Shown: positions 4,537 to 26,989 of the stretch, piece after piece
How positions within the stretch are numbered: the stretch's first letter is position 1
Layout of the letters: each line of letters begins with the position of its first letter
DNA from: a virus
DNA length: 64,000 nucleotides
Strand: one strand, 5' to 3'
UHGV virus genome: UHGV-0147904
Translations under genes and position numbers: made by a program
The notes under the pieces: generated by a model
Told to the model about the DNA's origin: nothing
Database searches by the model: none
The model's input: only the letters and a program-made list of their open reading frames with translations

Positions 4537-7500
4537 ATGAACAAGCTATCTATGGGGGTGTTTCGCTGTTCAAGTGTCAGCGAAATATTGAAATACATTA
4601 GGGCAATAACATCTCACCGAGCGCCGATTAAATACGGCGTGGAAAAGGTGGAAGGCAAAAGCTATGACCGACTGCGCCGTGAGGCGAATCAGAAGGCGAT
4701 AGATTTGCTTAATTCGCTGGTGGACGGCGCGACACTGACAGATGAACAGCGCCAGATCCTGGCTGGGTACACCGGTGAAGGCGGCATTGGCGGGTCCGTC
4801 TCCGAATATTACACACCAAAGCCTATCGCTGAAGGTGTCTGGGAGATCATGAAGCTCTACGGCGCGGACGTAGGTAACACTCTGGAACCATCGGCGGGAA
4901 CCGGCGTTTTTAATGAGACAAAACCGGTTGGTACGGTGATGACCGCGACTGAGATCAGCAGTGTTTCCGGTCGTATAAACCAGTTGTTACACCCGGAAGA
5001 CAGCGTACAGATTTCCCCGTTCGAACAGCTGGCTATAAACACGCCTAACGATTCATTCGACCATGTTGTGGGTAACGTTCCGTTCGGCGGTCGTGATAAC
5101 ACACGCAACATCGATAAGCCTTACGCAGAAGAAACGGACATGGGTTCTTACTTCATGCTCCGCATGCTGGACAAGATAAAGCCTGGCGGATTCATGTGTG
5201 TGATTGTGCCGCCGTCCATTGTTTCAGGTTCAAACATGAAGCGGTTACGCCTGCGCCTATCACGGAAAGCTGAATTTCTTGGCGCTCACCGCTTGCCTAC
5301 CGGTACTTTTGACGCAAACGGGACCAGTACAGTCGTTGATGTGGTGCTGATGCGCAAACATCCGGCAGAGATGGCTGAGAAAATCCCCCTGGTGGATGAA
5401 AGCACTCTCGAATCGGCAAATGTGCTTTGGCCAACGTTTATTTCTGGCAAGTGGTTTGAAAAGGACGGCCGCCGGTTTGTTCATGGCACCCAGGAAAAGG
5501 GCTTCCAGGGGCGTATTGAGGTTCGTGCCGACGGTCAGATTGATAACCAGGCTCTTAAAGCGAAGCTGATTCATCGTTTCGAAAGCCGTATCGACTGGTC
5601 TTTGCTCGATATGGCTGAACCGTCACCGACCGCAGACGTTGTTGGTGAAGGGGAAATGCGCCTGATTAATGGCGTATGGCAAAAATATGCTGGTGGTCGC
5701 TGGATTGAAGCTGATGCCGGGAAGGAACTTAAGATCGATGCTGCCAGTTATGGCGCGGATAGCTGGGAGGCTCTTCAGCGTAACCTGACTACAACAGAAG
5801 GCCGTCTCGGCATGACATTTACCCAGATGGCAAATGTCCGCGATAAGTACACCACATCAATCAGCGACGATATGGTGCAGCTGGTGGACTGGATTAACAG
5901 CCAGCCTGAAAAATACCGTGAACGCTTGTATCGCGGGGCGATGATTGGCCGGATGTTAATTGAATATCAGGACATGAAGGCCGCCGGGCATAGTGCTGAA
6001 CAAATCGAACAGCAGCGCCTTTCTCTGGTATCCCGTTTGCAGGCAGAGATTGACCGTTTTGGTAACCCCGGTCGCGGTCCGATAGCGAAATTGTCGGGGA
6101 GCGGTGCGCGCGCCTGGTTTGCTTTCCGTGGTGCGATTAAGCTGGATGGCACTATTTCTGACGAGCTGACAGGAAAGCTGGTTACGCATGATTCCAGCGC
6201 CAGTTATGACTCCACCAGCTATCAGGACACCCTGCGTTATCTCTATAGCGATCTTACCCGCGATCCAATCCAGCTCGATGATTTCCGCCTTGCGTTTACC
6301 GGCGAACTGCCAGCCAGTGATGAAGAGTTGCTTAATTTATTGGCCAGCACCCCTGGTATTGCGGTTTCACCGTATGGCGGGATTGTTCCGTTCGCCCGCG
6401 CCACCAGCGGCGACATTAACGAGATAGTGGCTCCAAAACAGGAATTTCTTGCCACACTCCCCGACGGTCCAGTAAAGAACAACGTCCTTAATCAGCTGGC
6501 AGCGATCGAAGAGAAGCGCATCAAGACGCCAGCAGAGAATATCCGCTTTAAGCTCAATAGCCGTTGGTTCGACCGCTCCGTCATTCTGGAATTTTTGCAG
6601 GAAAACGGCTATCCGGATCTGCGCTATGTGCAGTCAGTGCAGCTGGAAGGCGACGAAATGGTTTCTGACACCTATCACGGTGGTGATGGTCTGTTCGTCG
6701 GGCACCGATACGGTGTCGTCCAGCGCAAGGATAAAGAAACAGGCGAGATCCGCTACGAGTGGGACCGTAAATCGGGTGAAAACGCGACCGGGTTCCCGGC
6801 ACAGCTGGAAAAGTATCTCAATGGTGCGCGTATCGGTGGCAAAGATAGCGCGACGGCGAACGGCTACCGCGAGCAGATGGCACTGCTTGAGGACCAGTTC
6901 AATAAGTGGATCAAGACGCACGATCGCTACGATGAGCTGGTTGCCAAATACAACGATGTGTTCAATAGCAATATCCCGTATGAACACTCTGGCGATCCGC
7001 TTGGGTTGAAGGGATTAAGCGGTAAGCGCCAGCCATTTGATTACCAGAATAGCGAGGTGCGCCGACTGTCCGAAGATGGGCGCGGCATCCTGGGCTTCGG
7101 CACCGGGCTGGGTAAAACCACGACCGCGCTGGCGCTTGAGGCGTTCAACTATGAGAACGGTCGCTCCACCCGTACTGCGTATGTAGTGCCTAAATCAGTG
7201 CTGGAAAACTGGTATTACGAAGCAAAAGAATTCCTGAGTGAAGAGGCATTCAGTAACTACCTGTTCGTCGGTCTTGATGTGCTGATGGATGGCGATCAGA
7301 TTCGCCAGGTGCAGGTGCTCGATGAGAACGGTAAACCTGTTCTTGGTACTGATGGCACTCCAGTTATGCGCGATGCTCTTAAGCTGGCAGATGAAGCCAC
7401 TATCACGGCGCGGATGAACGCGATCCCGCACTCAAATTACCGTGCAGTCGTGTTTACCAAAGAACAATACGCCCGCATTCCGCTACGTGATGACACCGTA

Positions 7501-10500
7501 GATGAGCATGCACAGGATATGCTTTATGACTTCGTTGCCGCCGGACGCGTAGCCAGCGCAATGGACTCCGACTCCCACCGCAAAGAGGCCGCGCGTCGCC
7601 GGGTATTGTCGGAGTATTCAGATACCGGCACCGAAAAAGCAGAGAAGTATCCGTACTTTGAGGATATGGGCTTCGATAGTGTGATCGCTGACGAAGGTCA
7701 CAACTACCGCAATAGCTATAAAAATGGTCGCGAAGCGTCACAACTGGCCTATCTGCCCACCAGCGCGGTGGCGCAATCGGCGCGAGATATGGCAATTAAA
7801 AACGCGTACCTGATGAAAAAGAATGGTGGGCGCGGGCCGGTTCTCCTGACTGCAACGCCAGTCGTTAACACCCCGATCGATGCATACAACATGCTTTCTC
7901 ATGTTCTGCCGAAGGAATACTGGCAGAACATGGGGATCTACGGTCCTGATGACTTCGTTAAATTCTTCGGCAAGACCAGGCTGGAAACGGTACAGAAAAT
8001 TAGCGGTGAAGTTGAAGAAAAAATGGCGCTGGTGGGCTTTGAAAACCTTGATGCGCTGCGCGGTATATTCCATCGCTGGGTAACGCTTAAAACGGCGGAA
8101 GACGTTAAGGATACCGTGGAGATCCCGGAGCTGGACGAACACCAGCAGGATGCACCACTTACTGAAGAACAACTGGCGGCGTATGAAGAATTGCGTCAGC
8201 AGGCGGAAGCGGCGGCCAAAGCCAACAATGGCGTAACGACCTCGGTCAATGAAGACGGCGTGATTGAGCACGAGAAAGCCCGTCCGATCTTCTCAATAAT
8301 CAGGGATATGGACCGCGTATGTACTGACATGGACCTGTACTATCGCCGGATCACCTATCGTTTCCTGCCGGAGTACGCCGATGCGGTGCAGCAGCTGGCG
8401 GACAGTTTGCCTAAACAAGCCACCAGCGAAGACGACGACAGTGATGATTCAATCACGCAGCAATCGCAATACTCCCTGATAGATAAGGGCGAGTTTATTC
8501 AGTTGCAGGTTCCGGAAGCGTTCGAGCAGGAAGTGAATAAGCGCCTGGCCAGGTTTGGCATTGACGAACAGACCGTAACTCACCCCGTTACGCCCAAATA
8601 CGCGAAGCTGATTGCCACGCTGAAGGAGTTTTTCCCGGAAGGTAAGCAAATCATCTTCACCGATGAAAAAACGCAGCACCAGAAGCTCAAGCGCATTATC
8701 TGCAATGCTCTTAACCTTGAACCTTCAAAGGTGGGGATACTGAATGCTCAGACGGTTGCCGAGGCAGGTAAAACCGGTAAGAAACTGAAAGCGGTTAAAC
8801 CGCCGAAAGAGTTACCGGATGAACCAACAGATGCACAGATAGCGAAATACAACGAGCAAATGGCTCTGTATGACGCCTATATCGCGCAGCAAAATGAAAT
8901 GTCGTTGGGCGGTCTGGAAAAGATTGCAGCCGACTTCCAGGAGGGCCGGACTCCGATCATCATCTGCAACAAAAAGGCAGAGGTGGGTATCAACCTGCAT
9001 CGAGGAACGACTGACATCCATCATCTGACGTTGCCATGGACTCCAGCCAGTATTGCGCAACGAAACGGTCGCGGTGCCCGAGTTGGCTCCAACCGTGCAA
9101 GCGTTCGCGTTCACTACTACTGCGGCAAGGGTTCTTTCGATGAATACCGACTGAAGACGCTGAAGCGTAAAGCAGGCTGGATCTCCGATATCCTCCGTTC
9201 AGATAAGTCAGAAATGGAGAACGCCGACGCCAACGATATGATCGAAATGCAGATGTATACCGCTAAGGATGATGGCGAACGTCTGGCAATGATGCAGGTT
9301 CAAATGGATAAGGCGAAAGCCGCGCAACGCGCTCGCCAGAAAGAACAGGCTACTATCGACCTTCAGAACTACATCAAGGCGCAGCACGCAGCTGGTGAGG
9401 ATGTGGAGGTGCTTACCGCTGAATTAGAGCGAAGCAAAGCGGAACTTGAAAAGACCACCGCCGAGGTAGCTAAATTCAAACAGGCGGCAATGGCCAAGGC
9501 AGCGGATAACGCAGACTGGAAGGCACGCTGGGGGAGTGTCCATCACACAGACCGTATGTTGTTAGCACAGTATCGCGCGTCGTTGAAAAGCGCCATTCAG
9601 CGCAAGGCTAATATCTCTCAAGCCATCTCCCGCTATGAGAAATTATTGAACCGTACTCAGAAGGCCGCGACGGATATCAAACGCCTGCGCCCGCTGGTGG
9701 AGGATGCATTAAATAAAGGCATTCTGGATGTTGATCCTGACCTGGTTAACCATGCGAGTGAGTTCCTTGTTATCGGCGATCGCTCATGGCGTGTAGGCCA
9801 ATACTACGATTGTGCCGGTGATATCGTTCGCATTAAGTCGCTGGACTTCGACAGCCAGCGCGCAGACGTGGAGATCATCTTCACCTTCAAAGGCACCAAA
9901 TCTGGTAACTGGGATGTGAAGACGCTGGATAAACAGGTTGATGTAACTCCCGATGAAGATGCTGTTATGCAGAAAATCAGTGGTGGCGTCTCCATCGCCG
10001 GGATTAACGACATCGTTTCCTGTGACGATTTCTACCGTTTCCAGCAGCGCGGCATGATCAAAATCACTGACTCATACGGCGTTCAGACTACAGAGTCAGG
10101 CTATAGCATTGATTTTGTTGGTACCTATACGGACCCACTGAAGCATGCGGTTTACCCGGATCGCCGTGACGGCGCGCTGAAGTCGTCAATTGCAAAATGG
10201 GTGCTTGGTATGATGTCGGAAGGGAATAACCGCCAGATCCGTTCGGCAGAAGCATTCCTGGTTGAACTGTTTGGCTCCAATTATGGCGATGTAATCGCGT
10301 CATACGGAGATACGCTATCCCCTGAAGCAATTCAGGAGAAAATAGCGGATGCGATCGCCAGAATGCCGGAGAAAACAAGCCAGGGGGCTACTCGTAACGG
10401 GGATTCTGAACTTGAAGTCACCAATGCCATTTTCGGTACCAATGAGTTCCGGGCGTCAGATTATGAGATCACCACAGCACAGTTTGGCACCATTGGCATT

Positions 10501-11304
10501 TACAGCAATAAAGACGAGATCAAGCAGGCAATGGACGCAGCAAGCGCGCGCATTGCAGCAGAACGGAAAGCCAATCTGAATCATGCAGTCGCCGCGCTGA
10601 CTCAATCGTGGGTAACAGCAATCAGGGAGGCCGCCACCACAGGGAAAATCACACCGGCAATTGCGGATGTCGTAAACGACGGCTCTAAATTTATGGATGC
10701 CTATCAAATGGATGCGGTGCAGTTGCCATCAGCCTATGGGCAACTCAGCTATCGCATGACCTACAACCTGGTATCAATGTTTACCGACCTTGCCATCCTT
10801 GGGCTGGTGGACCTTAACGAGGTTACGCCGGAATTGCTCAGCATGCGCAAGAATCATGTGGAGATATTGCACAGAATTAACACGGTACTTGCCGGGCGCA
10901 CCGATGAAGAGAAACAGGCAGACGCTGATCGGATAAACCTGGCCCTTGGCAACATCACGGAGGAAGAAATTGCTGCCAGAAACGAGAAACAAGAAGAGTT
11001 ATCATCAATACAGGGTGATGCCACCAGCATAGCTCAGTCTCTTGGTCTGAATTATCGCGTATCCACCGCCGACCTGAAGATGATGTACGCACCAAAATTC
11101 GCCGCTGGCGAGGTATTTGGGCTTCAGGAAGCCTCCGGCATGAAAGGGGTTCTTTTCCGTGCGAAAGACGCAATCAAGGCGAAATTCGGCGCTCGCTGGT
11201 TGCCAGCGAAGGCGAAGAACAGCGACTTCCCAGGTAACTGGTGGATTATCGAGACAAAACACAACGTGGCGGACGTTCTGGCCGTCATCCAACAATACGC
11301 ATAA
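4537..11304 (+). CDS. darB: DarB, defence-against-restriction protein: N-terminal N6-adenine methyltransferase fused to an SF2 helicase
   Basis: 2255-aa single ORF; methyltransferase motif GNVPFGG near the N-terminus; helicase Walker A GFGTGLGKTT and DEGH box (VIADEGHNY); size matches P1 DarB. Confidence 0.9.
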   Translation: MNKLSMGVFRCSSVSEILKYIRAITSHRAPIKYGVEKVEGKSYDRLRREANQKAIDLLNSLVDGATLTDEQRQILAGYTGEGGIGGSVSEYYTPKPIAEGVWEIMKLYGADVGNTLEPSAGTGVFNETKPVGTVMTATEISSVSGRINQLLHPEDSVQISPFEQLAINTPNDSFDHVVGNVPFGGRDNTRNIDKPYAEETDMGSYFMLRMLDKIKPGGFMCVIVPPSIVSGSNMKRLRLRLSRKAEFLGAHRLPTGTFDANGTSTVVDVVLMRKHPAEMAEKIPLVDESTLESANVLWPTFISGKWFEKDGRRFVHGTQEKGFQGRIEVRADGQIDNQALKAKLIHRFESRIDWSLLDMAEPSPTADVVGEGEMRLINGVWQKYAGGRWIEADAGKELKIDAASYGADSWEALQRNLTTTEGRLGMTFTQMANVRDKYTTSISDDMVQLVDWINSQPEKYRERLYRGAMIGRMLIEYQDMKAAGHSAEQIEQQRLSLVSRLQAEIDRFGNPGRGPIAKLSGSGARAWFAFRGAIKLDGTISDELTGKLVTHDSSASYDSTSYQDTLRYLYSDLTRDPIQLDDFRLAFTGELPASDEELLNLLASTPGIAVSPYGGIVPFARATSGDINEIVAPKQEFLATLPDGPVKNNVLNQLAAIEEKRIKTPAENIRFKLNSRWFDRSVILEFLQENGYPDLRYVQSVQLEGDEMVSDTYHGGDGLFVGHRYGVVQRKDKETGEIRYEWDRKSGENATGFPAQLEKYLNGARIGGKDSATANGYREQMALLEDQFNKWIKTHDRYDELVAKYNDVFNSNIPYEHSGDPLGLKGLSGKRQPFDYQNSEVRRLSEDGRGILGFGTGLGKTTTALALEAFNYENGRSTRTAYVVPKSVLENWYYEAKEFLSEEAFSNYLFVGLDVLMDGDQIRQVQVLDENGKPVLGTDGTPVMRDALKLADEATITARMNAIPHSNYRAVVFTKEQYARIPLRDDTVDEHAQDMLYDFVAAGRVASAMDSDSHRKEAARRRVLSEYSDTGTEKAEKYPYFEDMGFDSVIADEGHNYRNSYKNGREASQLAYLPTSAVAQSARDMAIKNAYLMKKNGGRGPVLLTATPVVNTPIDAYNMLSHVLPKEYWQNMGIYGPDDFVKFFGKTRLETVQKISGEVEEKMALVGFENLDALRGIFHRWVTLKTAEDVKDTVEIPELDEHQQDAPLTEEQLAAYEELRQQAEAAAKANNGVTTSVNEDGVIEHEKARPIFSIIRDMDRVCTDMDLYYRRITYRFLPEYADAVQQLADSLPKQATSEDDDSDDSITQQSQYSLIDKGEFIQLQVPEAFEQEVNKRLARFGIDEQTVTHPVTPKYAKLIATLKEFFPEGKQIIFTDEKTQHQKLKRIICNALNLEPSKVGILNAQTVAEAGKTGKKLKAVKPPKELPDEPTDAQIAKYNEQMALYDAYIAQQNEMSLGGLEKIAADFQEGRTPIIICNKKAEVGINLHRGTTDIHHLTLPWTPASIAQRNGRGARVGSNRASVRVHYYCGKGSFDEYRLKTLKRKAGWISDILRSDKSEMENADANDMIEMQMYTAKDDGERLAMMQVQMDKAKAAQRARQKEQATIDLQNYIKAQHAAGEDVEVLTAELERSKAELEKTTAEVAKFKQAAMAKAADNADWKARWGSVHHTDRMLLAQYRASLKSAIQRKANISQAISRYEKLLNRTQKAATDIKRLRPLVEDALNKGILDVDPDLVNHASEFLVIGDRSWRVGQYYDCAGDIVRIKSLDFDSQRADVEIIFTFKGTKSGNWDVKTLDKQVDVTPDEDAVMQKISGGVSIAGINDIVSCDDFYRFQQRGMIKITDSYGVQTTESGYSIDFVGTYTDPLKHAVYPDRRDGALKSSIAKWVLGMMSEGNNRQIRSAEAFLVELFGSNYGDVIASYGDTLSPEAIQEKIADAIARMPEKTSQGATRNGDSELEVTNAIFGTNEFRASDYEITTAQFGTIGIYSNKDEIKQAMDAASARIAAERKANLNHAVAALTQSWVTAIREAATTGKITPAIADVVNDGSKFMDAYQMDAVQLPSAYGQLSYRMTYNLVSMFTDLAILGLVDLNEVTPELLSMRKNHVEILHRINTVLAGRTDEEKQADADRINLALGNITEEEIAARNEKQEELSSIQGDATSIAQSLGLNYRVSTADLKMMYAPKFAAGEVFGLQEASGMKGVLFRAKDAIKAKFGARWLPAKAKNSDFPGNWWIIETKHNVADVLAVIQQYA

Positions 11305-11308
11305 CAGG

Positions 11309-11330
11309 AGCGCCCGGTTCGCCGGGCGTC
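11309..11330. other. GC-rich hairpin in the darB-ulx spacer
   Basis: gcgcccgg ttcg ccgggcgt, no T-run; lies 8 nt upstream of the next ATG. Confidence 0.35.
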
Positions 11331-11337
11331 GCATAAT

Positions 11338-11778
11338 ATGGCCACACTATCTGATACAATAAAACCGAATAAAACATATCTTGAGGCGGTACTCCGTACA
11401 GCGTTGTTAGGAAAGACAGAAGACGAATACGTTGATTTCTTCCTGTCAGGGCTACGCGGGCGATTACTGAAAAATCCCCGCCTGTACCGCAGCTATGGCC
11501 CATACTGGCCGGAAATTAAAAAATTATTACTGGAGCGCGGTTATGGTAATTTCGGTCGTCTCGTTGACCGTGACGTTCGCAAAATTTACCGTTATGACCG
11601 CCCGGCGCTGACGCTCATAGCTGCGACGCTCTACAGCCAGGAGCGTTTTGATAATGGTCAGATATACTCAGCCTGGCATTTACTGCCAGTGCCTGAAGAG
11701 GTTGACGACCAGGACTATGAGTTTGAGTCTTACGATTTGGAAGTTGAAGCCTTGGCACAGGCTGGAGAGAAAACTTGA
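11338..11778 (+). CDS. Small protein downstream of darB (P1 ulx-like by position)
   Basis: 146-aa ORF, ATG 30 nt after the darB stop; name by synteny only. Confidence 0.45.
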   Translation: MATLSDTIKPNKTYLEAVLRTALLGKTEDEYVDFFLSGLRGRLLKNPRLYRSYGPYWPEIKKLLLERGYGNFGRLVDRDVRKIYRYDRPALTLIAATLYSQERFDNGQIYSAWHLLPVPEEVDDQDYEFESYDLEVEALAQAGEKT

Positions 11779-12023
11779 AGAAGCGATACTACACAGTAAA
11801 GCATGGGACGCTACGAGCATTGCAAGAGTTTGCTGATAAGCATAACGTTGAGGTGCGCAGGGAAGGGGGAAGTAAAGCTCTGCGCATGTACCGTCCTGAC
11901 GGAAAATGGCGGACGGTCGTCGATTTCAAAACTAACAGTGTTCCCCAGGGCGTCCGCGACCGGGCATTCGAAGAATGGGAGCAGATCATCATAGATAACG
12001 CATTGCTTCTGAACGCTGATTAA
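11775..12023 (+). CDS. Small protein (P1 lxc-like by size and position)
   Basis: 82-aa ORF whose ATG overlaps the upstream stop (ATGA); size matches recalled Lxc. Confidence 0.45.
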   Translation: MKKRYYTVKHGTLRALQEFADKHNVEVRREGGSKALRMYRPDGKWRTVVDFKTNSVPQGVRDRAFEEWEQIIIDNALLLNAD

Positions 12024-12033
12024 TAATCATTTA

Positions 12034-12054
12034 AAGCCCATATGATATGGGCTT
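12034..12054. other. Perfect 9-bp-stem hairpin at the left edge of the AT-rich island
   Basis: aagcccata tga tatgggctt immediately after the lxc-like stop; no T-run. Confidence 0.5.
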
Positions 12055-12075
12055 AAACAACAGGATCGATATACA

Positions 12076-13116
12076 GTGTTAGTTAAATATATAGGCGAGA
12101 GTTATATGGAAAAACCTTGGCCGGGCATGCACATTAGAACATCTTGTCTGGAGGATGGTTTCTTTAGAGCAACGCAACCAAAGTATCTTAATGATCCGTC
12201 GAGTGAGTCGCGACTTCTTCCATTTTTTAATAAATTTTCACCAGCCGATTACGCATGGGCTAGAAATGAATTTAAGAAAATGCAACGAGATCCATCTTAT
12301 GTCCCATCTATACAAGAGTTAGAGTATTATTTAAAACCTTGCGGGAAACGATACGGAGAGGATTTTCCACACTTGTTAATCAATGAAGGTTTTACCTCAA
12401 TGGATTCATATGATGAATCTAAACTCCAAGAAATAGTAACGTACCTTAACGATTATTTAGTAGAAGCCGTAAGCTGTCATCTTGGTGTATTCTCTCTATC
12501 AAAAAGTGATTGCAATCTACACATGTGGACTCATTATGCATCGATAGGAAAGGGGTTTGCTGTAGTTTTCGATGAAACACACGATTTTTTTAAAATATAT
12601 CGGCCGTGTGATGTTAGTTATAATCCAGAAGATAGAGCATCTGTAACCTATTATAAAGGCGCTGTGCGATTTAATGGCTATCCTGCGCCATCGAGGAATA
12701 TAGATATAAAGAATAAAGATAATACATTGCATGGGATCTTAAATCGAGATCCAGTTCGCGAGCTTTTTATTAATAGGCTTCTTTATACAAAAGGTGAAGA
12801 GTGGCTTCCTGAAAATGAAAGTAGAATTATTTTTCCATTGGCTGATTGCGAGAGAAAAATAGGAAGCATTGTCTCTCCATCGATTGATGATTGCCTATTG
12901 AATGAGTATCCTGATGTTTTTCATGACTATCATGAAATTAACTTAAAGAAAATTCCTTTTTCTGCATTCAAGCAAATTACCTTAGGGTATAACATGACTG
13001 AAAAAGATAAAAATATAATTTTAGATAAAGTTAGTTCGAATAAAGAATTGTCTCACGTCAACGTATTACAATCAAAACTTGATATATACGGAAAGGTTGT
13101 GGTTAAGCCCATGTAA
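12076..13116 (+). CDS. Candidate defence/exclusion cargo protein, possibly DUF2971-family, at the P1 res/mod hotspot
   Basis: 346-aa ORF (GTG at 12076, alternative ATG at 12106) in a markedly AT-rich patch; motifs KYLNDPSSES and HMWTHYASIGKGFAVVFDE resemble what I recall of DUF2971; occupies the lxc-mat interval where P1 has res/mod. Confidence 0.6.
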   Translation: MLVKYIGESYMEKPWPGMHIRTSCLEDGFFRATQPKYLNDPSSESRLLPFFNKFSPADYAWARNEFKKMQRDPSYVPSIQELEYYLKPCGKRYGEDFPHLLINEGFTSMDSYDESKLQEIVTYLNDYLVEAVSCHLGVFSLSKSDCNLHMWTHYASIGKGFAVVFDETHDFFKIYRPCDVSYNPEDRASVTYYKGAVRFNGYPAPSRNIDIKNKDNTLHGILNRDPVRELFINRLLYTKGEEWLPENESRIIFPLADCERKIGSIVSPSIDDCLLNEYPDVFHDYHEINLKKIPFSAFKQITLGYNMTEKDKNIILDKVSSNKELSHVNVLQSKLDIYGKVVVKPM

Positions 13117-13145
13117 TAATACGCTTATGTCTACACTTCATGATA

Positions 13146-13172
13146 AATACCTTCCTTAACTTAGGAAGGTTA
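13146..13172. other. Inverted repeat between convergent cargo gene and mat-like gene
   Basis: accttcc ttaactta ggaaggt, plus a second short palindrome aacct tcgt aggtt at about 13184-13197; possible bidirectional terminator. Confidence 0.35.
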
Positions 13173-13213
13173 GTTGTGGGTTTACGCAGAAAGTAACAAA
13201 TAACCTTCGTAGG

Positions 13214-13855
13214 TTATAGAATATTATTCTTTCCGGTGAGTATTCCTTGAGGAACTCTAGCGCATCCCATAATTTGAGTTTTCTTGATGATGTTTATATA
13301 TGACGCTATCAGCGATGAGTCATCACGACTATCCACTTCAGAAGCCATTGCCCTGATGTACTCGGCGCTGGCAACGTTGTTGTATTCCGTCGCAAAGCAA
13401 CATAGTAACGTCAGAACATGCTCTGTCGTTATTTCGCTCCAGTTGATGTTGAAAAATTCATCGCCTTTTTTATCGTGTTCGGAATCGAAGATGCTTTGGT
13501 GGAGGATGTATTTGCCGGATTCCTTGCGCGGTAACTTGATCGCTTTCTGGCGTTCCAGCTCCTTGTAAATCTGCATTGCTTCAATCAGTACCGGCCTGCC
13601 GTTCATGAAGGGATCGCGCAACCTTACACGCTGGCCAACTCGACCAGTAATAAAGCTGTTTTCCTCTTCCACCAGCACGATAAAACCCTTTTCCTCTTTT
13701 TCTCGCAATTCGCGCAGCAGCTGGAGTTCCATATCGCGGCGGCGTTCAGGGTAGCTGGTCCGCTCAGCCATTATCAGCTCGTTATTGATCCATGCAGCAG
13801 TCATTGACGCCGGTTTGCCGACGCTCATCGAAACAACGCATATTTTCTTATCCAT
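13214..13855 (-). CDS. Particle maturation protein-like (P1 mat position)
   Basis: ORF trimmed to the internal Met MDKKICVV... with AGGGGG ribosome-binding site; lies downstream of ref as in P1; name by synteny. Confidence 0.45.
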   Translation of the reverse strand: MDKKICVVSMSVGKPASMTAAWINNELIMAERTSYPERRRDMELQLLRELREKEEKGFIVLVEEENSFITGRVGQRVRLRDPFMNGRPVLIEAMQIYKELERQKAIKLPRKESGKYILHQSIFDSEHDKKGDEFFNINWSEITTEHVLTLLCCFATEYNNVASAEYIRAMASEVDSRDDSSLIASYINIIKKTQIMGCARVPQGILTGKNNIL

Positions 13856-14044
13856 AGCGCCCCCTACAAAAAAGAAAAGCCACCAGCGGCGGCTTAGCAA
13901 TACAACTGAAGGTAGCGCCCGGTACTCAGACTGTGCCGTCCATGGAATATTTGAAAAGGGATCCATCCGTACCGGGCGTGTGATGATTCTGACTGAAGTC
14001 ACTTGTCAGTTGTCAATCATTTATCATTAAAAATAATATATTTA

Positions 14045-14605
14045 TTAGTGCATGATGTTTGCCATCTCATAGGCGTCAGCCAGTAACTCCATCTCTGACT
14101 TGTTCAGCAAGGTGAATTCTTTCTTGCCTCCAACCACACCATCGGCATGAACAGGGACCAGCCAGGGGTATTTTTCTCTTACTTCAGCCGGTGCTGCATG
14201 CTGGTGGTGCCATCTACAAAGTGGCAACTGCTTTTTGTGACAACCCGGCGCGGTACGACCGGAGATATGGTGCAGAGACACCTCTTCAGATATTACTCCA
14301 TGCATATAGCAGGCAATGCAGGGGAGAGCGCCAAGAGCATTGGCTATACGCCGTTCCTCCGCCGTCGGTGTTCGTCCCTTCAAGCCACGAGATTTTATTT
14401 TTACCGCACTTTTCCGCGTTTTGCTGGCTGGTGGGCGCTCTTTCTGTTTAGCGATACGGCGGTCGATAGAATCCCGCATTTTCTGATATTGCGATTCTCG
14501 CCAGGCGGGGTCAGCCAACTTTTCCCGTTGCCGAGCGATCGCTCGTTCTCTGGCTGCCTTCTGCCACTCGCGGCGCTGTTCAAGTTTTTGTTCGATTGTT
14601 TTCAT
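14045..14605 (-). CDS. ref: Ref, HNH-type recombination enhancement endonuclease
   Basis: 186 aa from internal Met (MKTIEQKLEQ...), matching P1 Ref length; Cys/His-rich HNH-like core CIACYMHGV...LHHISG...CRWHHQH; basic N-terminus. Confidence 0.8.
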   Translation of the reverse strand: MKTIEQKLEQRREWQKAARERAIARQREKLADPAWRESQYQKMRDSIDRRIAKQKERPPASKTRKSAVKIKSRGLKGRTPTAEERRIANALGALPCIACYMHGVISEEVSLHHISGRTAPGCHKKQLPLCRWHHQHAAPAEVREKYPWLVPVHADGVVGGKKEFTLLNKSEMELLADAYEMANIMH

Positions 14606-24923: not shown

Positions 24924-25845
24924 GGTCCACCTCATGCTTTTCAGCCACCAGCGGCAATAAAGCCCTGGCCATCTTATGAACCAATAGTGCATCAATAATG
25001 CCAAGCGTATGCCCCGGCTTAATGTTTAATGCCGCCTCAAGGTGACACCTTTCCAGGTCACTTTTCTCGGCTTGTTTATGATGATCTGGTGTAATAACGT
25101 CGCCCAAAACACGGCTAATTCTTTCTCGTAATTGCTGGGTGCCAGCACACTTGATCGCTGTATCGTGGAGACGGTTAACCAGTTCGCGATAAACATGCGG
25201 CTTAATGCGGATACGTTCACCGGTGACGCCCTTTCCTGGCGCTGGCACCGAACTATCCGGAATATCCGGATAGTTGCCAGCCTCGTAAGCTACCCACAGC
25301 CAGTGCATGAATGTTTCAGTGGACACACAACCACAGTCCACATCGATTTTCCCGCGTTGCTGTTCCAGCCATTGCCCAAAATCCAACCTGTAAGTCTTAC
25401 TTTCAAGTTCATCACCATTGAACTCGACTTTCTGCGACGCTATGAGAGCTGATTCGTATTGTTCGCGAGTGACAACTGACTGGTATTCATCGCTATCAAG
25501 GCCACCAATTGGAAGCTCAATCTCACAACAAAAATTGCGCCCAAAGAAAGTGTCTTTTTTGTGGTCTGAGCCAAAAGCAAAAGTCGCGCATGGTGCCATT
25601 AAATTGACACTGGGTAGGTAACAATAACTCATTCCATCAGGCCACCCGCCGCACTTAGGCAGCTCCTTCACTAACAAGTCGATAAGCTTCATTTTTTTAT
25701 CATCTTTGCAAGCCGCCAAAGCCATTTGGGCAAGTGCCAATACTTCATCTGCCGTATATCCAGCACCGTGACCATACATTTCGATACGGGAAATAATCTC
25801 TGATATACGCTCTTCAGTGATTCTGGTCATTTCTTTTTGCGCCAT
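24907..25845 (-). CDS. Hypothetical protein
   Basis: 312-aa ORF in the minus-strand operon. Confidence 0.45.
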   Translation of the reverse strand: MAQKEMTRITEERISEIISRIEMYGHGAGYTADEVLALAQMALAACKDDKKMKLIDLLVKELPKCGGWPDGMSYCYLPSVNLMAPCATFAFGSDHKKDTFFGRNFCCEIELPIGGLDSDEYQSVVTREQYESALIASQKVEFNGDELESKTYRLDFGQWLEQQRGKIDVDCGCVSTETFMHWLWVAYEAGNYPDIPDSSVPAPGKGVTGERIRIKPHVYRELVNRLHDTAIKCAGTQQLRERISRVLGDVITPDHHKQAEKSDLERCHLEAALNIKPGHTLGIIDALLVHKMARALLPLVAEKHEVDHANES

Positions 25846-26201
25846 TTCTTTTCACATTCCTTAGTCCATTTTTCAATGTTCATTTTGGCAATATCGGTCA
25901 TTCCATCACCTAAGAAATACTTTCTCCGGTATGTCTTGCACTTAAACCACACTACAACAGCCACCAGCCAGAAAATAAAAGGCCATACAGCAATACCAAC
26001 GACTGCCGCGATAAAGCTCAATATCCATAAATGAAGCTCTCCAACTTCTGTTTCCGGCAATATTCTTAAAGAATTAAACAGTAGGCTGAACGCATGGTCG
26101 TATGCATTGGCAGTATAAGACATGCAATCCATATAATTAAAGTCATAGCCTGCGGCTGCCGCCCATAATGGGCGGTCAAGAAAATGTTTTAGTGTCATCA
26201 T
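25827..26201 (-). CDS. Hypothetical membrane protein
   Basis: 124 aa with long hydrophobic stretch LWILSFIAAVVGIAVWPFIFWLVAVVVWF; AT-rich patch. Confidence 0.4.
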   Translation of the reverse strand: MMTLKHFLDRPLWAAAAGYDFNYMDCMSYTANAYDHAFSLLFNSLRILPETEVGELHLWILSFIAAVVGIAVWPFIFWLVAVVVWFKCKTYRRKYFLGDGMTDIAKMNIEKWTKECEKKWRKKK

Positions 26202-26207
26202 ATAAAT

Positions 26208-26501
26208 TTAAGGTTCAGACCAGTTATCTTCAATAGCAATGCTTAATCTTTGTAGCCATTCTGCTAATTTCAGCATTGCTTCTCTTTCGCTTAAACCACG
26301 AGGAAAATCATCAAGCGAAATTGTTGGCTTGAAGCCCCCGTAATTATCCATTTCAACTGTCAGATTTTGCTCCAGCACGGTATTCCTTACGCGGCTATTG
26401 TGCCGAAGCAAATATACTGAACGTGATTTATTGGTTTTATGGTCAAACTGATATTCGGTAAGTATCATCTGGCTTTTGCCATGACTATTACCTCTCCACA
26501 T
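26208..26501 (-). CDS. Hypothetical protein
   Basis: ORF trimmed to internal Met (MWRGNSHG...) with GAGGTAAG ribosome-binding site overlapping the stop of an upstream 40-codon hydrophobic peptide. Confidence 0.35.
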   Translation of the reverse strand: MWRGNSHGKSQMILTEYQFDHKTNKSRSVYLLRHNSRVRNTVLEQNLTVEMDNYGGFKPTISLDDFPRGLSEREAMLKLAEWLQRLSIAIEDNWSEP

Positions 26502-26511
26502 ACTTACCTCA

Positions 26512-26631
26512 CTTAATAAAACAACTCCATGCGTAGTTGATGATTTTTTCCCACGTAATATAAATCTGCACTCCGGCAGTAAAACCAAAGCCAACAATTG
26601 CTGAAAAAATCAAAACATTTACTTTTGACAT
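26512..26631 (-). CDS. Small hydrophobic peptide, 40 aa
   Basis: MSKVNVLIFSAIVGFGFTAGVQIYITWEKIINYAWSCFIK; below the ORF-track cutoff; AT-rich. Confidence 0.25.
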
Positions 26632-26679
26632 TATAAATTTTCTCTCGGTGTCGTAGGTGATAGCACCATAATTGATAAT

Positions 26680-26913
26680 TTAGTGAGTTAGCAGTTCCAT
26701 TTTTTGGATGATTTCCGCATGAGCATCATCGTTATCAACACTTAACTCGTTTAATGCCTCTCGCACTACATCAACTTCTTCAGGCTGAAAGAAGTCGTCG
26801 CGGTAATCACCAAATAGAACCGAAACCAGCCTGCCACCAGCAACATCAAGATTGGCGCTAACAGGTGGCTCTTTGCCATCCTCAAATTCGACAACAAAAG
26901 TTAATTTTCCCAT
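26680..26913 (-). CDS. Hypothetical small acidic protein
   Basis: 77-aa ORF. Confidence 0.35.
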   Translation of the reverse strand: MGKLTFVVEFEDGKEPPVSANLDVAGGRLVSVLFGDYRDDFFQPEEVDVVREALNELSVDNDDAHAEIIQKMELLTH

Positions 26914-26989
26914 CGTTACCCCCAGAAGATAAAAATAGCGGCAATCGCCATAGCTACGCCTACAATCGCAAATGCTTCAGGCCAGCTCA

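Follow-up and report, generated by a model that had tools for sequence, protein, structure and literature searches.

A one-gene DUF2971 cassette in the res-mod slot of a P1-like phage-plasmid as a candidate anti-phage system

Proteins of the DUF2971 family (PF11185) have been predicted as ADP-ribosyltransferases (ARTs) related to DarT and AbiGi (PMC12522546). One member, Aristaios, i.e., a 316-aa single-gene DUF2971 protein of the lactococcal plasmid pUCCL641_199, was validated as an abortive infection system by Grafakou et al. in 2024 (PMC11381338). The predicted fold of Aristaios is ART-like, and the protein halts transcription and protein production of the phage (PMC11381338, PMC13064643, PMC12967558). 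The family has also been listed by PADLOC as the candidate PDC-S31 since 2023. In this study, a DUF2971 gene of the virus genome UHGV-0147904 was analysed in a stretch of 64,000 nucleotides, hereafter the window. The window is a P1-like phage-plasmid, and the gene is located at 12076-13116 on the + strand, between lxc and mat. An initial annotation, made from the letters of the window, had described positions 12024-13213 as a single-gene AT-rich island in place of the P1 restriction locus and had proposed a defence or superinfection exclusion module.

In reference P1, the lxc-mat slot is occupied by res and mod (EcoP1I) and by IS5, the sequenced strain being mod749::IS5. The initial annotation was right about res/mod, whereas the IS1 that it placed in the slot lies in another variable region and the element found there is IS5. 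The variability and low GC content of the res-mod region are already published, i.e., as RD-1 (PMC6906374) and as variable region 1 (PMC9603915). In a 2025 DefenseFinder survey of P1-like elements, complete defence systems were found in a minority only. The survey lists type III restriction-modification (R-M), dGTPase, PrrC, and CapRel, and the P1 DUF2971 gene is not mentioned. In the literature searched, neither this gene nor the lxc-mat slot is described as a defence hotspot.

A one-gene cassette replaces EcoP1I in the window, and defence or exclusion is the best reading of its role from sequence comparison and structure prediction, as had been proposed. Such a role for the DUF2971 gene is likely. 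It was preferred because the protein matches PDC-S31, EcoP1I and CapRelSJ46 are occupants of the same slot, homologues are carried as prophage cargo, and the ART-like predicted fold bears a conserved signature. The combined statement, i.e., that the region is a one-gene anti-phage cassette (abortive infection or exclusion) encoding a self-regulated ART dependent on nicotinamide adenine dinucleotide (NAD+), is moderately probable.

The 346-aa protein was assigned to its family by profile searches. The Pfam profile of DUF2971 aligned over its whole length (profile positions 1-89 of 89) to residues 150-251, including the MWTHYAS motif. The score was 27.3-27.5 bits against a gathering threshold of 22 bits, and all 76 of the 76 homologues were matched above threshold. 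The resemblance to DUF2971 suggested by the initial annotation was thus borne out. Its view that methyltransferase, helicase, and classical nuclease motifs are missing also held, since Pfam found DUF2971 only and no methyltransferase, helicase, or nuclease domain. Its remark that the family is tied to no named defence system no longer holds, given the validation of Aristaios and the listing under PDC-S31. In the PADLOC search, PDC-S31 was the sole class returned, with matches to four models, i.e., PDLC04994 (expectation value, E, 1.8e-16), PDLC04990 (1.4e-14), PDLC04991 (8.3e-11), and PDLC04992 (5.2e-6). The best of these models aligns to residues ~120-183 only, and another spans residues ~118-332 (346-aa numbering). 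The protein also matched phrog_1762, of unknown function (E 1.7e-69), and no match was found in NCBIfam.

An HMMER scan of 1.84 billion representative proteins gave 8,842 clusters (50% identity) at E ≤ 1e-3 and 40 clusters at E ≤ 1e-30. By sequence, the window protein belongs to a small and distinct group within a very large family. The allele itself is 97.7-100% identical in almost all of ~90 plasmids of Escherichia, Salmonella, Shigella, and Klebsiella; one plasmid record, CP148777.1, aligns to the open reading frame (ORF) in two pieces. The nearest non-identical relatives share 50-54% identity and belong to Klebsiella, Serratia, Vibrio, Shewanella, and others.

The structure was predicted by AlphaFold2 with the 76 sequences, and the model reached a predicted local distance difference test (pLDDT) of 92.4 and a predicted template modelling score (pTM) of 0.87. 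The predicted fold matches that of the nucleic-acid-acting enzymes of the ART superfamily, i.e., Tpt1 and DarT, and the split beta-sheet ART core is present in the model. The strand order agrees with the published description of DUF2971, i.e., an ART core of six strands in which strands 1 and 4 are followed by large helical inserts (PMC12522546). The candidate catalytic residues are R31 (strand 1), S140-L-S142 (strand 2), W151/Y154, and E246-x-E248-x-R250 (strand 5). In the model, strand 29-31 bears R31 and strand 136-142 bears S140-L-S142; the helix 148-154, which directly follows the latter strand, contains Y154, and E246-x-E248 lies where strand 248-254 begins. Among relatives with as little as 25% identity, Y154, E248, and R250 do not vary, and R31, W151, W243, and E246 are each present in 90% or more. 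At S140-x-S142, the relatives have the pattern S/C-x-S/T. The motifs were mapped to the ART strands by secondary-structure order, not by residue-level superposition. In this mapping, the R31, S140xS142, Y154, and E246xE248 signature sits on the strands bearing ART catalytic motifs, and catalysis by the protein is putative.

ADP-ribosyl transfer as the chemistry of the enzyme was rated as evenly balanced. Enzymes with the ART fold bind and cleave NAD+, and the protein might instead defend by destroying NAD+, i.e., as an NADase, with the cells dying of NAD+ depletion as in SIR2/TIR systems. A SIR2-like protein is frequent in the same slot, and no target-binding domain was assigned to the C-terminal region, where residues 266-346, modelled on their own, gave no match; both points would suit an NADase. 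However, DarT and Tpt1, to which the protein is structurally closest, attach ADP-ribose to nucleic acids, and an ExE motif, here E246 and E248, typifies transferases. For Aristaios, a block of transcription and protein production was reported, rather than NAD+ depletion. Defence by NAD+ destruction is therefore unlikely, and a transferase acting in defence was kept as the preferred reading.

The cassette was delimited by base composition and by homology. The GC content of 12024-13213 is 0.353, compared with a mean of 0.485 (standard deviation 0.031) for 1190-bp windows, and is the minimum across all 64 kb. The AT-rich island of the initial annotation is therefore real, but its extent of ~1.2 kb fell short, as the exchanged cassette runs to ~13342, i.e., 43 codons into mat. 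In BLAST, the left homology of every island-less P1-like record stops exactly at the lxc stop codon (query 724, window 12023). On the right, the homology of these records resumes at query 2044 (window 13343) or only a few bases away. Because homology restarts 43 codons inside mat and the Mat C-terminus tracks the cargo, the exchanged unit was set as 12024-13342. This unit of 1319 bp, with a GC content of 0.355, comprises the 5' hairpin, the DUF2971 gene, the 3' hairpins, and the mat 3' end. It is a low-GC allele of 1.3 kb between fixed breakpoints, i.e., the lxc stop codon on the left and mat codon ~170 on the right.

The mat 3' end (13214-13342, - strand), which holds the last 43 codons, is cargo-linked and has a GC content of 0.372, compared with 0.491 for the remainder of mat. 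Mat was compared among eleven cargo variants, and ten sequences were intact, the 5' part being frameshifted in 673R5. The first ~163 residues are nearly identical, with at most two substitutions, and the last ~45-50 residues diverge by cargo type. The C-termini of the DUF2971 type and the EAL type are the most diverged. The association of the Mat C-terminus with the cargo could be simple linkage or functional coupling. No transposase, integrase site, or convincing flanking repeats were found at the cassette, and in RCS47 the slot is empty, with 39 bp between lxc and mat. As the simplest reading, we infer that these are old, diverged alleles exchanged by homologous recombination in the conserved flanks.

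The slot was then compared across P1-like elements. Its flanks were found in 706 of 5426 complete E. coli genomes (~13%), and 57 of the 706 carry the DUF2971 cassette (~8%). Among the plasmid records of PLSDB with the flanks, the cassette was found in 85-90 of 705 (~12%). The gene is thus present in ~8-12% of P1-like elements, not in most, and takes the place of res/mod. This speaks against conservation in most P1-like genomes beside an intact res/mod, which the initial annotation had named as a refutation of its proposal. The contents of the slot were recognized in an evenly spaced sample of the 705 plasmids, i.e., DUF2971, SIR2-like, RelA/SpoT, YaaC with a 169-aa gene, PIN_12, GNAT, EAL with a 170-aa gene, or an empty slot. 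The SIR2-like protein is a frequent occupant. Other sampled slots hold larger inserts, which BLAST divided between two locations, as it did the res/mod references.

In SJ46, the slot (locus L027, 1062-2183) encodes a 373-aa RelA/SpoT protein, which aligned from end to end with PDB 7ZTB (E 1.4e-250). CapRelSJ46, a single-protein anti-phage system validated by experiment, is stated to originate from SJ46. The 373-aa protein is CapRelSJ46, and the home of this system is the P1 res-mod slot. Among the other cargos, PADLOC profiles matched the RelA/SpoT protein (PDC-S33), the PIN protein (PDC-S34), and the SIR2 protein (PDC-S25/ThsA), and no profile matched the YaaC, GNAT, EAL, or DUF4145 proteins of the slot region. 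Because it holds two validated defences, i.e., EcoP1I and CapRelSJ46, and several candidates, the slot acts like a locus of defence alleles, although some of its occupants have no known role in defence. The YaaC, GNAT, and EAL cargos could be candidate defence or counter-defence genes.

Several other features of the slot region were observed. The SIR2_2 gene is split in one plasmid (L005). The 169-aa protein encoded beside YaaC showed a weak match resembling nucleoside 2-deoxyribosyltransferase. In one P1-like plasmid (L010, 3088-3837), a DUF4145 gene lies between mat and ref. This insertion suggests a second small insertion point adjoining the main slot.

The occupants of the slot bear on whether the gene serves P1 itself. 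The DUF2971 enzyme might act during the infection by P1, in host takeover or counter-defence, as Alt, ModA, and ModB do for T4. Phage-encoded ARTs modify host RNA polymerase and RNA. The gene also lies beside the DarB/Ulx antirestriction genes, in the same orientation as darB-ulx-lxc and just downstream of them. However, R-M, CapRelSJ46, and SIR2, which likewise occur in the slot, are defences and not takeover genes, and such a low frequency among P1-like elements does not suit a gene for the phage's own benefit. Close homologues are found in non-phage chromosomal islands, one of them beside an AAA_15/21 ATPase gene, and the protein matched a PADLOC model of a defence candidate. A benefit to the infecting phage is quite unlikely.

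The genomic contexts of relatives 46-51% identical to the window protein were inspected. In P2-like prophages of Salmonella and Enterobacter, a homologue of 46-47% identity stands alone between baseplate gene V and tail gene S (L011, 8001-9050; L022, 7001-8047). This gpV-gpS site is presumably the orf30 cargo position of P2. It differs from the site analysed in the published P2 hotspot study. The Serratia homologue is located at a prophage end, adjoining smpB. One Klebsiella homologue adjoins an AAA_15/AAA_21 ATPase gene, and a second lies within an AlpA/H-NS/Mrr island. The Shewanella homologue is alone in the chromosome. No neighbour gene is conserved across seven other genomic contexts, and the protein is therefore considered to act alone.

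A distant DUF2971 protein of ~25% identity was also found in SSU5-type phage-plasmids (NC_018843.1, 32677-33273; ~189 plasmid records), the hosts of which are Klebsiella, Enterobacter, Salmonella, and E. coli. By this match, the DUF2971 family recurs in a second phage-plasmid lineage.

These contexts and the conservation of the protein weigh on the two remaining explanations. A hitch-hiking AT-rich gene, now functionless or with a function unrelated to phages, would be in line with GNAT and EAL, slot-mates that have no known defence role. This is improbable, since the ORF is intact and nearly identical in almost all of the ~90 plasmids from four genera, and the catalytic-type residues are conserved down to 25% identity. 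A selfish plasmid-stabilising toxin (addiction) or a secreted effector or virulence toxin is very improbable: P1 res/mod contributes to plasmid stability (PMC6906374) and ~18% of DUF2971 proteins are predicted effectors (PMC12522546), but the cassette has no antitoxin gene or RNA, which leaves post-segregational killing without basis, and no secretion genes neighbour the homologues in any context examined.

If the DUF2971 protein is a defence enzyme, the following mechanism can be proposed. The gene would be expressed from the plasmid prophage, as res/mod is, and the cassette has no C1 operator. In the window, 15 C1-operator-like sites were found (e.g., at 740, 16823, 32815, 48645, and 51921), compared with 0.32 expected by chance, and none is inside the cassette; up to three mismatches to the P1 C1-operator consensus were allowed. 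The enzyme would be self-inhibited, perhaps via its large helical insertions and C-terminal region, until an infecting phage supplies the activating cue. The enzyme would then use NAD+ to ADP-ribosylate nucleic acid, i.e., single-stranded DNA as DarT does, or RNA, or a part of the gene-expression machinery. Phage gene expression would halt and the infection would abort, so that the lysogen population and the P1-like element would be protected. Homologous recombination within the flanks, which are conserved, would carry the alleles from one P1-like element to another.

Several points weigh against this reading. The support for a defence role is computational. Foldseek gave nothing significant against PDB (best E 0.87), and a PDB sequence profile search with the 76 sequences had no match at E ≤ 10. 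When the 76 members were scanned with Pfam at E ≤ 10, only DUF2971 recurred, with no DarT, AbiGi, Tpt1, or other ART family. The common ground of Aristaios and the P1 protein is, at the sequence level, the Pfam family only. In the literature searched, no paper deals with PDC-S31, which is a candidate class only. The GNAT, EAL, and YaaC slot-mates have no known defence role. A toxin that is expressed constitutively and has no antitoxin needs a mechanism of self-inhibition, which is only postulated here. A promoter scan showed no convincing promoter for the DUF2971 gene; the -35 of P2mod, inside lxc, is kept with one change, and the position of its -10 falls in non-homologous sequence. For these reasons, expression of the gene is what we infer.

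The ORF at 12076-13116 is the sole credible one between lxc and mat, as had been noted, and was assigned a GTG start. This start was taken because nearly all homologues begin with an MLVKY-like N-terminus, and it also fits the 346-aa length in RefSeq. The ATG at 12106 was first preferred for its upstream GGCGAGAG and was dropped on account of the same N-terminus. From the sequence reading, AGGA at 12062-12065 (+ strand), 10 nt 5' of the GTG, is a probable ribosome-binding site. In searches with Rfam, Tandem Repeats Finder, and a small-ORF listing, the cassette showed no second ORF, Rfam family, or notable repeat array, only one weak 24-nt tandem array (score 32).

The hairpin and the 3' inverted repeats of the initial annotation were both found again. 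The first hairpin is just 3' of the lxc stop codon on the + strand, at 12034-12054 (feature span 12031-12057), with the arms TTAAAGCCCATAT and ATATGGGCTTAAA. It has a 9-bp stem, -12.1 kcal/mol, and a z score of -2.55, and a different hairpin is present at this position in each cargo variant. Because no T-run follows it on the + strand, it is not a clear lxc terminator. Between the convergent DUF2971 and mat genes, a hairpin with an 8-bp stem and a 6-nt loop at 13149-13170 looks like a - strand terminator. In the fold of 13117-13225 (- strand), a 7-bp hairpin at 13200-13217 covers the mat stop codon and is followed by a U-rich tract, i.e., a candidate mat terminator. Imperfect inverted arms of 26 nt lie at 13152-13177 and 13196-13221.

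A short repeat, TTAAGCCCAT(A/G)T, is present at both ORF ends (12033-12047 and 13103-13118), and a 19-nt pair of 84% complementarity (12041-12059 and 13100-13118) brackets the DUF2971 gene. The C-terminus of the protein, VVKPM, departs from the homologues where the repeat lies. The repeat was considered as a signal and dropped, being within the noise of the 26 inverted-repeat pairs of the region. The repeat and the bracketing pair may be chance occurrences.

The flanking genes are those of P1, as first described. On the left, darB (4537-11304), ulx (11338-11778), and lxc (11775-12023) are on the + strand, lxc being a C1 modulator gene and the conserved left flank. On the right, mat (13214-13855), ref, c8, cre, and cra are on the - strand, and the conserved part of mat (maturation control), which forms the right flank, is 13343-13855. 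By BLAST, bases 11300-14100 are 100% identical to MH422554.1, a record named Punavirus P1 from infant faeces, and to MH445380.1. The DUF2971 ORF is unannotated in these two records and annotated in RefSeq plasmid records. The only other stretch of the window with a GC content below 0.40 is 25500-26950, which has small ORFs on the - strand. Their products include a hydrophobic protein of 124 aa, probably located in the membrane, and a protein of 129 aa. This stretch probably represents a further variable region of P1.

The finding holds and was sensibly interpreted, but it is not very novel, as the family had previously been listed as a defence candidate, one member from another source had been validated, and the variable region was already described. 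If the gene is a defence gene, an anti-phage system has gone unrecognised in about a tenth of P1-like elements. In that case, the res-mod slot would be a defence-allele locus, with EcoP1I and CapRelSJ46 as its already validated occupants. The slot behaves as such a locus, with its right-hand breakpoint inside mat. An annotation is also missing in roughly a tenth of P1-like elements. A DUF2971 member tractable in E. coli is an entry point to the target and trigger of the family, including those of Aristaios. It is doubtful, though conceivable, that the P1 protein is the founding tractable example of stand-alone, self-controlled ARTs (8,842 clusters) that sense infection without an antitoxin and modify RNA or the transcription apparatus, not DNA, and that lxc-mat is a true defence-allele locus in which the Mat C-terminus is functionally coupled to the cargo.

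Among known systems, Aristaios is similar in being a single gene with a DUF2971 domain and an ART-like predicted fold, a likeness drawn by description and not by sequence. It differs in its Gram-positive host and non-phage plasmid, and the abortive infection phenotype and the transcription block have been shown for Aristaios only. When plasmids were searched by tblastn with the window protein, no Lactococcus match was obtained. PDC-S31, a computational candidate class, is matched by four profile models and, as here, is a single gene; the P1 cassette has no partner ORF or RNA.

DarT of the DarTG system was also compared. The P1 protein is outside the DarT sequence family, as the Pfam scan of the 76 members at E ≤ 10 gave no DarT match. 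No DarG macrodomain antitoxin gene lies beside the P1 gene, which is the single ORF of its cassette. DarT has ~210 aa, whereas the P1 protein has 346 aa, with large helical insertions and an extra C-terminal region.

The other comparisons are with occupants of the same slot. EcoP1I res/mod shares the slot, the orientation 3' of lxc, and the character of low-GC accessory cargo. It differs in having two genes, a span above 5 kb, and domains of the methyltransferase and helicase-nuclease types; Pfam found no such domain in the DUF2971 cassette. CapRelSJ46 differs in its unrelated fold and chemistry, i.e., a RelA/SpoT-type enzyme that pyrophosphorylates transfer RNA, and is on the opposite strand in the slot. 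However, it occupies exactly the same lxc-mat slot in a sister P1-like element and is a single self-regulated protein that aborts infection (PMC9712102). CapRelSJ46 is thus the model for a toxin standing alone.

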